Of a stretch of 18,918 nt of DNA, positions 1-18,918 are shown in pieces. Under the pieces are notes generated by a model that saw only the letters and a list, made by a program, of their open reading frames with translations, made no database searches and was not told the DNA's origin. A program made the position numbers and the translations under genes. How positions within the stretch are numbered: position 1 is the first letter of the stretch; the number at the start of each line of letters is the position of its first letter. Origin of the DNA: Nanohaloarchaea archaeon B1-Br10_U2g1 (GTDB lineage: Archaea; Nanohalarchaeota; Nanosalinia; Nanosalinales; Nanosalinaceae); contig LKMN01000014.1 in the NCBI GenBank assembly GCA_001563875.1, positions 1-18,918 on the forward strand, in the 5' to 3' direction.

Positions 1-1
1 A

Positions 2-130
2 TGGTCCACCCGGGATTCGAACCCGGGACCGCCGCCTAACTTAAGGCAACACACAATCCTCTTATTTGAGGCCATTTTTTTGTGTGAGGTCCGTATAAGG
101 ACGGTGCTCTAACCCCTGAGCTAGTGGACC
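2..130 (-). tRNA. tRNA-Ile(UAU) with a 56-nt intron at canonical position 37/38 (exons 130-94 and 37-2); CCA apparently not encoded
   Basis: Minus strand folds as acceptor GGTCCAC/GTGGACC + A73, D arm GCTC-AGGGGTTA-GAGC, anticodon stem CCGTC/GGCGG with loop CT-TAT-A|A, variable CGGTC, T arm CCGGG-TTCGAAT-CCCGG. Anticodon TAT at 97-95. The base after A73 is T. Confidence 0.95.
38..93 (-). other. tRNA intron with bulge-helix-bulge (BHB) splice motif
   Basis: C32-T33-T34-A35 pairs with intron TAAG (4-bp central helix); 3-nt bulges TA|C and TT|A put both cuts at 37/38. The intron body forms CACACAA/TTGTGTG and CCTC/GAGG stems. Confidence 0.92.
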
Positions 131-16014: not shown

Positions 16015-18918
16015 CTAAATCCGGAAGAAGAATATTGCGGTAGCAGTCAGCATCAGCACCATTACTTGTAAAATTCCTATTCCTGGTATTGCCTCAGGCT
16101 CTCCTTCTACTACATCATCTGGATCAACCTCTTCTACTACGTCAACATTTACCGAGTCTGATCCTTCTACTTCCCCATCAACGCTTTCAGCCTGGATCTC
16201 AAGTTCGCTGTTATCTATATCGATATTTCCTCCTGTCATGGCTATAGTGAACCTTTCGGACTCCTGAGGACCCAAGGTTACTTCGAAGCTTGAGCCTGAC
16301 TCCTCTACAAACTCTGAGTGTGTAAAGATCTGTGGATCGTCCTCATATGTGTTGTCAACCATCTCTACTTCGAAAGTTCTTTCCACGTTGTCAACGTTTA
16401 GTACCGTGAGCCCTGTTGTCCTTTCTTCTCCTAGTCCTACTTGTACGTTACTTTCATCCAGTACCACCGGCCATGTATCATACCATGTACCTCCGAAGCA
16501 TGAAATGCTTCCACCGTCTACATCTTCAAAGTTTATCTGTTCTCCTTGTTCGTAAAGTGCTCTGTCCTCTGAAGGATCGAATTCGTAGCTGCCGTCATCT
16601 TCAGGAGTGTTTTGGCTTTCACTACCATCGAATACACAGTAGTCAGTGCTTGAAGCCGCACCTTTAACGCTTCTATCGGTTTCAACTAATTCGCTGCTGG
16701 ACTGCTGTGTAACCAAGTGTTCTCCTTCATCGTCTCCTACACAGAAACCTAGTGAGGCAGTGTAGTCTCTGTTTGTTCCTGTAGGTACAGGTGTGATATC
16801 CTCTGACTGGAAGTTGGTGTTGCTATCCCAGCTATCGCCTTCAGGATCTGATTCATATCTTTCGTATTCAGAGAATCTTTGGTAGTTCTGTGACATATAG
16901 TCGTTCCAGGAGTCATCGATACCTCCTGTTACAGCGTGAGGATGGTTCTGTACATAATCCTCATCCAGCCATCTCTTGGCGTCGGTACCGTATAAAGTGT
17001 TTTCACGGCAGAAGCTTTCAGAGTCTTCTCCTTGTTTGAAGTCTTGGTCGTACCATGTGCCTAGTCCGTCCGGATTGGTTGAACAGAATTCATCGTCTTG
17101 TTTAAGACGTCCTTCTTCCTCTCCCGGTTCGTTCAGCTGGTGGTATGAGTCATCTCCGAAGTCTGATCTTACGAACTTTTCTTCCTCACTTATGAAGCAC
17201 ATGTCTCTTTCTGTTGCACAAGCGTAGTGTCCTTCGTACTGTTCTGACTCGTTCGGTGCTTCTCCCATCTCCTCTATTAGGTACTCTCTTTGATCATCTC
17301 CACATACAGGAGGTTCTAAAGGCTCTCTCATCTGTCCGTCTTCGTCTTTTTCCCATGAGATCTCAGCAAAGTTCACGTGTGAGCTTTCTCTTTGCTCTAC
17401 AACTTCTCCCTGTTCTAGATCGTACGCCGTATGATAGTCTAGGTCGTATCCAAGACCAGAGTCAGGTCCTGTTAGATCTATATCAAACGTTATGAAGTCT
17501 CTCCATCCCTCCTCAGAATCGCTGCTTATACCGGGATGTGTTTCATCTATATTTCCTTGCTGCCAGTGGTAGTAGACATCGTCAGGATCTATCCAGAAAC
17601 CATCTCCTTCTCTGATCTCCACACCGTAGTCGTCTTCTCCGAGATTTTGTGCCGCTACAACGGCTAAAGAGTTTGAGAACGCTCTATCATCTTTAAGCAC
17701 CGAGCTATCCGTATACTCGCTTCTAGTAGGTCCTGTGTAGTCTTCCTGGTAATGTATACCTGTATCACTGCTGGTGTAAGTTCCTGAGTCAGAGTCTCCA
17801 AACGTTGTGTAAGGTACGCCCGTAGCATCTACCGCCCAGTCTCTATCTTCAGTATAGGCGTACTGTATTGCGCTGTCTTCATCTGCGTGAGTATCCTGAT
17901 ACCACTCAGTGTTAGCGGAGTCGTAGTCGTTATGATCACTGTCTCTCTGATGACCATATCTTGAGTCTCCATCTATACGCCTTATCTGGTTGACATAACC
18001 TTCAAATACGGGATCTATAGATACTAAGTTGCCTGTAGCGAACTCATTAAACGTATGGTGTTTATCTTCTCCCTGCGGGTGGTAGTCCGCATCCCTAACA
18101 TATCCATCTGTTTCCCCATGTATTGACTCGAAGAAGCCGAAGTAATGGCCGTCTCTAGCGTTCAGGCCGTCAGAACCGTCCGTTCCATCGGTTCCCCGGA
18201 TTTCGTCTTCGTGGTCTCCACATTCAACACCAGGACCACAGTCGGCCAAAAGGCTTGTTCCAAGCTCTTCGCCTTTAGGACTATAGTAGTTGTCTGCAGC
18301 GCTAGGATGCTCGGCGTAGTAGTAGTCTATATGATGATATTCCTCGCCAGTATTCATAGTCTCTGTTCCTGACGCTTCAGTTCTCTGATTGTCAGGATCT
18401 AGATTGATGTCATGGTTGTTCCCGTTTCTCAAATATTCGTTCACCCTTGGGTCATCGAGATCGTACCACTGTCCTCCATAGCCTTCGTTGTTAGGGTTGT
18501 TATGTCTGTAATTGTACGGCTTGTCGTCATATTCTGTATCAACATTAGAATCCCTGATATTGAGACATACCTGCCAGTCAGGACTGTCTCCACCTTCTTC
18601 ATATCCTTCCTCTGTGAAGTACTGATGCTTACCAATAGATGCTACGTTCTTTACTGTTCCTTCAGCGAACGCAAAATGTTTGTTCACACATGCGTTCTCA
18701 TCTATCTCTTGGTCGAACTGATCTGTCTGACCATCGTCCCATTCAAGACATGTTTGCTCGTGAAGCAGGTAATCATCAACAGTATCTTGGTCAACCTGAG
18801 GTCCTTCCATCAGTATCTTGTGCTGGTCGTCTTTAGCTCCACAGGACTGAGGTAGAGGTGCTATATTGTCTCCTTCTTGCATGTAGTCACAGTCAATCAG
18901 GTCGTCTCCTCTATCGTC
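16015..18918 (-). CDS. Large acidic cell-surface protein, 5'-truncated by the window edge; C-terminal Ig-like region and PGF-CTERM-like anchor
   Basis: Frame stays open upstream of ATG 18882 to the edge (DDRGDDLIDCDY). Very D/E-rich with 14 Cys in the listed 955 aa; beta-rich stalk; ends AIPGIGILQVMVLMLTATAIFFFRI (PG motif, hydrophobic helix, Arg). Confidence 0.88.
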   Translation of the reverse strand, partial: DDRGDDLIDCDYMQEGDNIAPLPQSCGAKDDQHKILMEGPQVDQDTVDDYLLHEQTCLEWDDGQTDQFDQEIDENACVNKHFAFAEGTVKNVASIGKHQYFTEEGYEEGGDSPDWQVCLNIRDSNVDTEYDDKPYNYRHNNPNNEGYGGQWYDLDDPRVNEYLRNGNNHDINLDPDNQRTEASGTETMNTGEEYHHIDYYYAEHPSAADNYYSPKGEELGTSLLADCGPGVECGDHEDEIRGTDGTDGSDGLNARDGHYFGFFESIHGETDGYVRDADYHPQGEDKHHTFNEFATGNLVSIDPVFEGYVNQIRRIDGDSRYGHQRDSDHNDYDSANTEWYQDTHADEDSAIQYAYTEDRDWAVDATGVPYTTFGDSDSGTYTSSDTGIHYQEDYTGPTRSEYTDSSVLKDDRAFSNSLAVVAAQNLGEDDYGVEIREGDGFWIDPDDVYYHWQQGNIDETHPGISSDSEEGWRDFITFDIDLTGPDSGLGYDLDYHTAYDLEQGEVVEQRESSHVNFAEISWEKDEDGQMREPLEPPVCGDDQREYLIEEMGEAPNESEQYEGHYACATERDMCFISEEEKFVRSDFGDDSYHQLNEPGEEEGRLKQDDEFCSTNPDGLGTWYDQDFKQGEDSESFCRENTLYGTDAKRWLDEDYVQNHPHAVTGGIDDSWNDYMSQNYQRFSEYERYESDPEGDSWDSNTNFQSEDITPVPTGTNRDYTASLGFCVGDDEGEHLVTQQSSSELVETDRSVKGAASSTDYCVFDGSESQNTPEDDGSYEFDPSEDRALYEQGEQINFEDVDGGSISCFGGTWYDTWPVVLDESNVQVGLGEERTTGLTVLNVDNVERTFEVEMVDNTYEDDPQIFTHSEFVEESGSSFEVTLGPQESERFTIAMTGGNIDIDNSELEIQAESVDGEVEGSDSVNVDVVEEVDPDDVVEGEPEAIPGIGILQVMVLMLTATAIFFFRI

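Follow-up and report, generated by a model that had tools for sequence, protein, structure and literature searches.

How the codon AUA is read as isoleucine without misreading of AUG is a classic problem of the genetic code, and in most archaea the codon is read by a transfer RNA, tRNA-Ile2(CAU), that carries agmatidine made by TiaS. The stretch of DNA analyzed here (the window; 18,918 nucleotides (nt), one entire contig of the assembly of Nanohaloarchaea archaeon B1-Br10_U2g1) raises the question of how a nanohaloarchaeon solves this problem: at its very end lies an intron-containing tRNA gene with the anticodon UAU. We propose, with a probability that we put at about 0.88, that the product of this gene is a functional tRNA-Ile(UAU), which would be the dedicated and probably the sole reader of AUA in this organism, the TiaS route having been replaced. 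The host assembly comprises 709,831 bases in 26 contigs, with a completeness of 96.75% and a contamination of 0.28%.

Identification of an intron-containing tRNA-Ile(UAU) gene

The gene occupies positions 2..130 of the window on the minus strand, as do all its parts described below, and measures 129 nt with its intron and 73 nt when spliced. Rfam family RF00005 matched window 130..2 (-) over model positions 1-71 of 71 (52.4 bits against a gathering score of 29; E 6.4e-9), with a 57-nt insertion after position 37 in the alignment, and ARAGORN, when introns were allowed, called tRNA-Ile(tat) at c[2,130] with an intron of 56 nt. Default ARAGORN, which admits no introns, made zero tRNA calls in the window, because the intron hides the gene. 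The 5' exon (94..130; tRNA positions 1-37) contains the 5' strand of the acceptor stem, the D arm, the 5' strand of the anticodon stem and C32-A37, with the anticodon U34 A35 U36 at 95..97 (TAT on the minus strand), and the 3' exon (2..37; A38-A73) contains the 3' strand of the anticodon stem, the variable loop, the T arm, the 3' strand of the acceptor stem and the discriminator. Read directly from the sequence, the acceptor stem is GGUCCAC/GUGGACC with discriminator A73, the D arm is GCUC-AGGGGUUA-GAGC, the anticodon stem is CCGUC/GGCGG and the T arm is CCGGG-UUCGAAU-CCCGG. The spliced anticodon loop has 7 nt, C32 U33 U34 A35 U36 A37 A38, with the intron lying between A37 and A38. The cloverleaf with anticodon TAT at 97..95 and A73 described in the original prediction is borne out by Rfam, ARAGORN and direct reading alike, and the gene is confirmed as real and located at these positions. 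No CCA end was seen before the contig terminates.

At window 95-97, no alternative letter occurred in the contigs of DNA runs X1, X2 and X3, which represent two samples (X1 and X2 the same one, X3 a separate one); TAT is the only reading there, and the CAT that the original prediction had named as a refutation did not appear. One X3 contig covers 5-128, with differences confined to the intron, and the contigs of a further run, X4, leave window 43-98 uncovered. Since CCUUAUA is found in all 28 full-length orthologues described below and no variant is present in the X1-X3 contigs, TAT is not a sequencing slip. An assembly artefact or a pseudogene at the contig end has to be considered, as the gene lies at contig bases 2-130, where the assembly breaks, and contig depth over the exons is many-fold higher than over the intron and the flank. 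The same intact gene, however, is found inside seven closed single-contig genomes (G017, G018, G020, G002, G011, G015 and G007), and the independent X3 contig spans nearly all of it with changes in the intron only; when tested in this way, an artefact or pseudogene was not supported, and we regard it as extremely unlikely. Summed metagenome contig depth is many-fold higher over the exons (window 1-42 and 99-130) than over 43-98 in the intron, which suggests that many co-existing strains have common exons but different introns; this is probably why the contig breaks exactly at this tRNA.

Conservation and covariation among nanohaloarchaea

The 129-nt gene was used as a DNA query against 41 genomes of the same order, seven of them single-contig. 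Matches were obtained in 37 of the 41, and 30 of the 41 yielded loci with a UAU anticodon arm, namely 28 full-length genes and two that are cut by contig ends. Conservation of the intron had been proposed as a check in the original prediction, and an intron is present at the same site in 28/28 orthologues: each has CCUUAUA, then the intron, then A38, with intron lengths of 37-128 nt. In an alignment of 17 of the 28, selected for introns of 37-61 nt, 97.6% of cells are paired over the cloverleaf, the helix of the bulge-helix-bulge (BHB) motif and the intron helix, and 100% over the acceptor and T stems. Compensatory changes occurred in 11 of 30 pairs (four in the acceptor stem, two in the T stem and five in the intron helix), all five aligned pairs of the intron helix covarying; none of 500 shuffles reached the observed values, and slid controls were 27-47% paired. 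As judged from these alignments, purifying selection acts on the UAU gene throughout the phylum, and changes in its stems are compensated.

The intron and its bulge-helix-bulge fold

The 56-nt intron (38..93) was delimited by Rfam, by ARAGORN and by a constrained fold in which the four cloverleaf stems were imposed and the remainder was left free. In this fold, a 4-bp central helix, CUUA/UAAG, is formed by C32 U33 U34 A35 (96..99) and the intron sequence UAAG (40..43), with two 3-nt bulges, UAC at the 5' splice site (93..95; U36, A37 and the first intron base C, with the predicted cut after A37) and UUA at the 3' splice site (37..39; U, U and the invariant A38, with the predicted cut before A38). 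Pair counts for this helix among the 17 aligned orthologues were C32:G in 17/17, U33 with A or G in 16/17, U34 with G in nine and with A in seven (16/17) and A35:U in 12/17. Helix h is the perfect 5-bp anticodon stem, and the outer helix h' is short, with GG/CC and a C:G pair (2-3 bp), an A x C mismatch, and a G.U pair or unpaired U facing the 5' bulge. Beyond the bulges the intron is predicted to form a rod of GG/CC, a C:G pair, a conserved 7-bp helix of CACACAA (80..86) with UUGUGUG (50..56), in which the compensatory changes of the intron lie, and a small hairpin. The original prediction had spoken of a perfect BHB intron at 37/38; the BHB and its position hold but its perfection does not, the outer helix being short and mismatched, and we would call the predicted motif near-canonical at the canonical site.

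The BHB rule sets the cuts after A37 and before A38, and ARAGORN cut one base later, at 38/39, with an identical anticodon under both registers. We favour 37/38 over 38/39 because of the BHB geometry and because A38 is invariant in 28/28 orthologues. The proposal that the context for N6-threonylcarbamoyladenosine (t6A) forms only after splicing proved weak, as U36 and A37 are already contiguous in the 5' exon; in 10 of the 28 orthologues the first intron base is itself A, so that U36-A37-A is present before splicing.

The 5' end of the intron reads N-GGAC, bases 2-4 being GGA in 28/28 orthologues and GGAC being complete in 27/28 while the remaining intron drifts, and a near-invariant UGC follows the conserved intron helix. 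These two elements can pair with each other or, alternatively, with the exon strands G29-C32 and A38-C41; both RNAalifold and the unconstrained ensemble prefer the exon pairing, and RNAalifold picks the invariant hairpin G29-C32/GGAC. Because these columns are invariant, the data cannot tell which of the pairings matters.

TiaS and the CAU tRNAs

The search for TiaS used the Pfam family TiaS_FLD (PF08489, a ferredoxin-like domain), which was positive in all four archaeal control genomes. Nothing exceeded the PF08489 cut-off in the host assembly, where the best match scored 15 bits and contained three internal stops, and none of the 41 genomes of the same order gave a match. Among 42 genomes of the phylum that are at least 85% complete there was one match, a 189-amino-acid (aa) protein on a 2-kb contig that scored 23 bits to one domain and matched no other Pfam family.

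With introns allowed, ARAGORN detected 31 tRNA genes in the host assembly, two of them with the anticodon CAU. One (C14:2543-2617) has the initiator signature, A1:U72 together with GGG/CCC (three G:C pairs) in the anticodon stem, and the other (C9:1384-1521 (-)) has G1:C72 and a 65-nt intron; since no other CAU tRNA besides the initiator was found, the latter must be the elongator tRNA-Met. Its D arm, AGCUCAGGGGUUAGAGC, is identical to that of tRNA-Ile(UAU), and the T arms of the two tRNAs differ at one loop base and one stem base. Within the intron of the C9 gene lie TGATGA and a run of 8 nt, UUAUGAGC, that could pair with the anticodon loop (G31-A38) of the same tRNA. A hidden Markov model built from the 31 host tRNAs found only one weak extra piece (C23:7855-7917) and no further halves, and no further tRNAs of the host came from a strict scan for T arm plus acceptor or from a D-arm scan, which recovered just 12 of the 31 known genes. 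ARAGORN at lowered thresholds and a loose anticodon-arm scan gave hundreds of chance matches and were discarded, and a whole-genome Rfam search with its pre-filter skips intron-bearing tRNAs, the window tRNA included, and is unsuitable for a census.

A closed single-contig relative (G017; 1,027,595 bases) was used as the complete-genome control for the tRNA census. ARAGORN with introns found 35 tRNAs there, two with CAU, one with GAU and one with UAU, and a 5'-half scan (acceptor, U8, D arm, anticodon stem and loop) revealed no third credible CAU tRNA in this genome. The scan does see disguised genes, because it recovered tRNA-Asn(GUU) and tRNA-Ala(UGC), which ARAGORN had miscalled as Ala(agc) and Cys(gca) (C1:285340-285525 (-) and C1:259729-259878 (-)). 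Errors are therefore to be expected in tRNA tables generated automatically for this phylum. The idea that UAU decoding has taken the place of the TiaS route accords with these searches, PF08489 being absent from the host and 41 relatives and two credible CAU tRNAs being found in the host and in the closed relative; with neither TiaS nor a tRNA-Ile2(CAU) in the lineage, the agmatidine route appears to be gone.

An alternative to this conclusion is that the reader of AUA is a tRNA-Ile2(CAU) whose gene is hidden and whose modifying enzyme has no relation to TiaS, with the UAU gene redundant or silent. Hidden tRNAs do exist in the phylum, since the closed relative has tRNA genes interrupted outside the anticodon loop, and ARAGORN overlooks or miscalls several tRNAs in these genomes. 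Against this stand the 5'-half scan of the closed genome, with just two credible CAU tRNAs, the purifying selection that appears to act on the UAU gene throughout the phylum, and the status of ATA as the commonest isoleucine codon, which calls for an abundant cognate tRNA. We consider a hidden tRNA-Ile2(CAU) very unlikely.

Use and meaning of the AUA codon

Codon usage was counted in a mechanical set of open reading frames (ORFs) of at least 200 aa, which includes some false frames. In the host assembly, ATA accounts for 5836 of 10228 isoleucine codons (57%; 36.8 per 1000 codons), and in the closed relative for 45%. The meaning of ATA was tested in one gene, that of FttA/aCPSF1, against 47 distant full-length homologues obtained from a search of representatives; a first set of homologues, nanohaloarchaeal only and at least 72% identical, was too close for this test and was set aside. 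The closest FttA proteins to that of the host are annotated as Nanohaloarchaea, Ca. Nanohalobium and Ca. Nanosalina. At the 27 ATA positions, the distant homologues have isoleucine at a frequency of 0.41, valine at 0.20, leucine at 0.17 and methionine at 0.04, the first three making up 78% of cells, and at the eight ATT positions they have isoleucine at 0.49, leucine at 0.24, valine at 0.17 and methionine at 0.03. As the ATA positions resemble the ATT positions, with methionine at 4%, ATA means isoleucine.

These data also bear on whether methionine might be the amino acid carried by the UAU tRNA, or whether the meaning of AUA has been reassigned or made ambiguous, as it has in mitochondria. 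The D arm identical to that of the C9 elongator tRNA-Met, and the near-identical T arm, would be in line with charging by methionine. The residues at the ATA positions of FttA nevertheless speak for isoleucine, just as at the ATT positions, and A73 together with the UAU anticodon fits isoleucine identity, of which both are known features; we find methionine charging or reassignment hardly credible.

Processing enzymes and the wobble uridine

A path from gene to decoding can be proposed from these features. The 129-nt precursor would adopt a cloverleaf fold in which the intron lengthens the anticodon arm to form the BHB, EndA would cut after A37 and before A38, and RtcB would join the exons. 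A CCA end would be added to the spliced tRNA, Sua5 and Kae1 could make t6A37, isoleucyl-tRNA synthetase (IleRS) would charge the tRNA with isoleucine, and U34 would pair with the A of AUA.

In the host assembly, EndA (TIGR00324, 110.9 bits) is a protein of 185 aa encoded at C14:3476-4033 (+), and no second EndA subunit was found there with PF01974. The EndA gene lies about 0.9 kb from the initiator tRNA-Met gene, and its product aligns to the C-terminal half of endonuclease models of 335-350 aa. RtcB (PF01139, 338.8 bits) is encoded by a gene cut by a contig end, the Sua5 and Kae1 genes are adjacent, Elp3 is full-length (TIGR01211, 637 bits), and TruD/Pus7 was also found. The TruA/Pus1 family (PF01416) was found neither in the host nor in any of 28 nanohaloarchaeal genomes that are at least 90% complete, as against eight of 13 other archaea in the same search, which suggests that pseudouridine at positions 38-40 is not made by the usual enzyme in this phylum.

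Modification of the wobble base could also bear on the presence of the intron. In yeast, pseudouridines 34 and 36 of tRNA-Ile(UAU) are made by the TruA/Pus1 family in an intron-dependent manner, and in archaea the introns of tRNA-Trp and tRNA-Met are box C/D guides, with box C RUGAUGA and box D CUGA. The nanohaloarchaeal intron might have been kept because a modification of U34 (and/or U36) would need the intron-containing precursor and would stop misreading of AUG, a proposal that would add to the reading of the gene as that of the AUA-decoding tRNA. Consistent with it, the 37/38 intron is retained in 28/28 orthologues despite the range of 37-128 nt in its length, GGA (28/28) and GGAC (27/28) persist while other intron bases drift, U34 is paired with A or G in 16/17 aligned precursors, and the other short-intron tRNAs of the host, Met and Trp, belong to classes with wobble-methylation guide introns. 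On the other side, box C (TGATGA) was seen by eye in none of the 28 orthologue introns of tRNA-Ile(UAU), with just 4 nt pairing with the anticodon loop; pairing between anticodon and intron is common to every canonical BHB (37/38) intron; TruA/Pus1 is lacking from the 28 near-complete genomes of the phylum; and the intron may be merely inherited, its loss requiring a precise deletion. Published systems point both ways. The tRNA-Ile(UAU) genes of ARMAN-2 and Korarchaeum also bear introns (PMC3239211, PMC6000648), and a haloarchaeal tRNA-Ile mutated to U34 acquires 5-cyanomethyluridine (cnm5U) and then binds AUA, AUU and AUG (Mandal et al. 2014, PMC3895270), which would make special handling of U34 sensible; but unmodified U34 reads AUA in Mycoplasma mobile (PMC3575796), so modification is not strictly needed. 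An intron-dependent modification of this kind seems doubtful to us.

A more elaborate scheme, which we consider unlikely, would make the intron a required anticodon chaperone and not a relic, with a two-state precursor that directs or blocks wobble modification. The 5' N-GGAC and the near-invariant 3' element (GCC) would pair mutually, as the BHB outer helix, or with the anticodon-stem strands. In the one state U34-U36 would be buried within the BHB helix, and in the other they would be exposed in the loop of a small hairpin. In this way Elp3, for example, might be kept from making the AUG-misreading cnm5U, or another enzyme might be admitted.

Evidence weighing against a sole UAU reader

Several points weigh against the proposal that a functional tRNA-Ile(UAU) is the dedicated and probably sole reader of AUA. 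No RNA run is listed among the runs containing this stretch, and we thus infer from DNA the transcription of the gene, its splicing exactly at 37/38, the chemical state of U34 and the charging with isoleucine. Although all of 200 shuffles fold less well than the 129-nt stretch (z -4.12), the unconstrained minimum-energy fold of this stretch is not a cloverleaf, and in the unconstrained ensemble the anticodon stem is formed in 0/28 orthologues; we treat the non-cloverleaf fold as a limit of the energy model and not as evidence against a tRNA. Under the constrained fold, the canonical two-bulge pattern is obtained for 16 of the 28 orthologues, five are without the BHB central helix, six have it in a shifted register and one is otherwise shifted.

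As for the agmatidine route, the absence of TiaS was judged from a single domain family, PF08489, and a C34-modifying enzyme non-homologous to TiaS would escape a search by sequence. The ARAGORN census of the host is incomplete, tRNA genes for Asn, Tyr and Ala(UGC) being missing from its 31 genes; these most likely fall in assembly gaps. Given this incompleteness, the conclusion that the host has no third CAU tRNA rests on the closed relative and on the lack of TiaS. Finally, since cnm5U34 binds AUG and a full-length Elp3 is present in the host, faithful reading of AUA is not self-evident. With Elp3 kept and AUA as the main isoleucine codon, how the reading of AUG is avoided is a real question.

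Comparison with known systems

The arrangement itself is already known. According to Fujishima et al. (2011, PMC3239211), ARMAN-2, -4 and -5 have tRNA-Ile(UAU) and lack tRNA-Ile(CAU) and TiaS, from which the authors infer that the agmatidine route was replaced, and the ARMAN-2 pre-tRNA-Ile(UAU) has a 25-nt intron at 37/38 in a strict hBHBh' motif that is cut by its own endonuclease in vitro. The organism studied here is likewise a small DPANN-type archaeon with a UAU anticodon, a 37/38 intron and neither tRNA-Ile(CAU) nor TiaS found. In contrast to the 25-nt intron and strict hBHBh' of ARMAN-2, its intron measures 56 nt (with a range of 37-128 nt in the phylum) and combines a long, conserved helix in its rod with an outer helix that is imperfect; the endonuclease of ARMAN is the three-unit epsilon2 type, whereas one 185-aa EndA was found here; and splicing of the ARMAN-2 precursor was demonstrated in vitro, whereas here it is predicted from the sequence.

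Nanoarchaeum equitans and Korarchaeum are also named as archaea with a UAU isoleucine tRNA (PMC3895270, PMC6000648), and the gene of Ca. Korarchaeum cryptofilum has one intron and is closest to that of its own tRNA-Ile(GAU) (PMC6000648). The emphasis on rarity in the original prediction, which cited N. equitans, was misplaced, as the UAU arrangement has also been published for Korarchaeum and for ARMAN-2, -4 and -5 (PMC3239211). N. equitans and Korarchaeum are, however, single species in the published surveys, whereas the nanohaloarchaeal gene occurs across the whole sampled phylum, with AUA as the main isoleucine codon; and whereas the Korarchaeum tRNA is nearest to its own tRNA-Ile(GAU), the D and T arms of the nanohaloarchaeal tRNA match elongator tRNA-Met.

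Outside archaea, pseudouridine is found at the wobble position of eukaryotic tRNA-Ile(UAU) (PMC3575796). The yeast tRNA and the one described here have in common the UAU anticodon, the 37/38 intron and the reading of AUA without a modified C, but, unlike in yeast, TruA/Pus1 was found in 0/28 near-complete nanohaloarchaeal genomes. In Mycoplasma mobile, tRNA-Ile2(UAU) reads AUA with an unmodified U34 and IleRS is adapted via Arg865 (Taniguchi et al. 2013, PMC3575796). Similarly to our case, the C34-modifying enzyme was lost and a UAU tRNA reads AUA; that case is bacterial and intronless, whereas ours is archaeal and has an intron. The agmatidine route does the same job, the reading of AUA, and not AUG, as isoleucine, and both its components, tRNA-Ile2(CAU) and TiaS, were sought here and not found. 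No published report of tRNA-Ile(UAU) or of TiaS loss in nanohaloarchaea was present among the top-ranked literature matches, and the phylum-wide occurrence in nanohaloarchaea appears not to be in print in the literature searched.

Other features of the window and of the tRNA genes

The remainder of the window encodes an archaeal housekeeping set as identified by Pfam, comprising proteasome alpha and beta subunits, SBDS, Rrp4, Rrp41 and Rrp42, L37ae, prefoldin, SepF, FttA/aCPSF1 and prolyl-tRNA synthetase. A metallophosphoesterase gene adjoins an AAA ATPase gene, a pair that we take to be Mre11 and Rad50, and a 955-aa ORF at 16015-18882 (-) runs open to the contig end and has no Pfam match at E 1e-5. 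The proteome of the host is acidic, with a fraction of aspartate plus glutamate of 0.19 against 0.11 for lysine plus arginine.

Other tRNA genes of these genomes are also unusual. The tRNA-Thr(UGU) gene of the host (C19:3482-3982 (+)) has a 426-nt intron at 37/38 that is nearly filled by a 133-aa ORF, whose product (locus L089:238-639 (+)) matches the PD-(D/E)XK endonuclease family PF11645 (PDDEXK_5; 143 bits). Inspected by eye, the ends of this intron form a strict hBHBh' motif, in which the helix CUUG/CAAG is accompanied by the bulges UAC and ACA and the outer helix has 7 bp. Homologues of the intron ORF were found in five of 70 genomes of the phylum, the host included, each within about 150 nt of tRNA-Thr(UGU) or tRNA-Asn(GUU), and from these sequences the ORF looks like a mobile, homing-type endonuclease tied to tRNA genes. 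In the closed relative, partial copies of tRNA 3' ends (T arm and acceptor strand) are present on C1 at about 156.5, 158.8, 227.8, 236.0, 554.8-555.5, 590.7 and 700.5 kb, directly downstream of several tRNA genes, and in one gene resembling tRNA-Pro(UGG) an insertion of about 55 nt splits the T loop.

Significance

For annotation, the lesson is that default tRNA finders overlook the tRNA-Ile(UAU) gene and that several tRNA genes of these genomes are miscalled. If the intron were indeed an anticodon chaperone, it would be the archaeal counterpart of the eukaryotic intron-dependent modification of tRNA-Ile(UAU), and it would explain the frequent introns in published archaeal and eukaryotic UAU isoleucine tRNA genes. 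Because AUA is the most used isoleucine codon here, misreading of AUG would be costly, and the state of U34 is worth measuring; cultured pairs of nanohaloarchaea and their hosts exist, so the question is experimentally accessible. Together, our data suggest that a whole archaeal phylum, the salt-loving nanohaloarchaea, may be added to the short list of lineages that have replaced the modified cytidine by a plain UAU anticodon.

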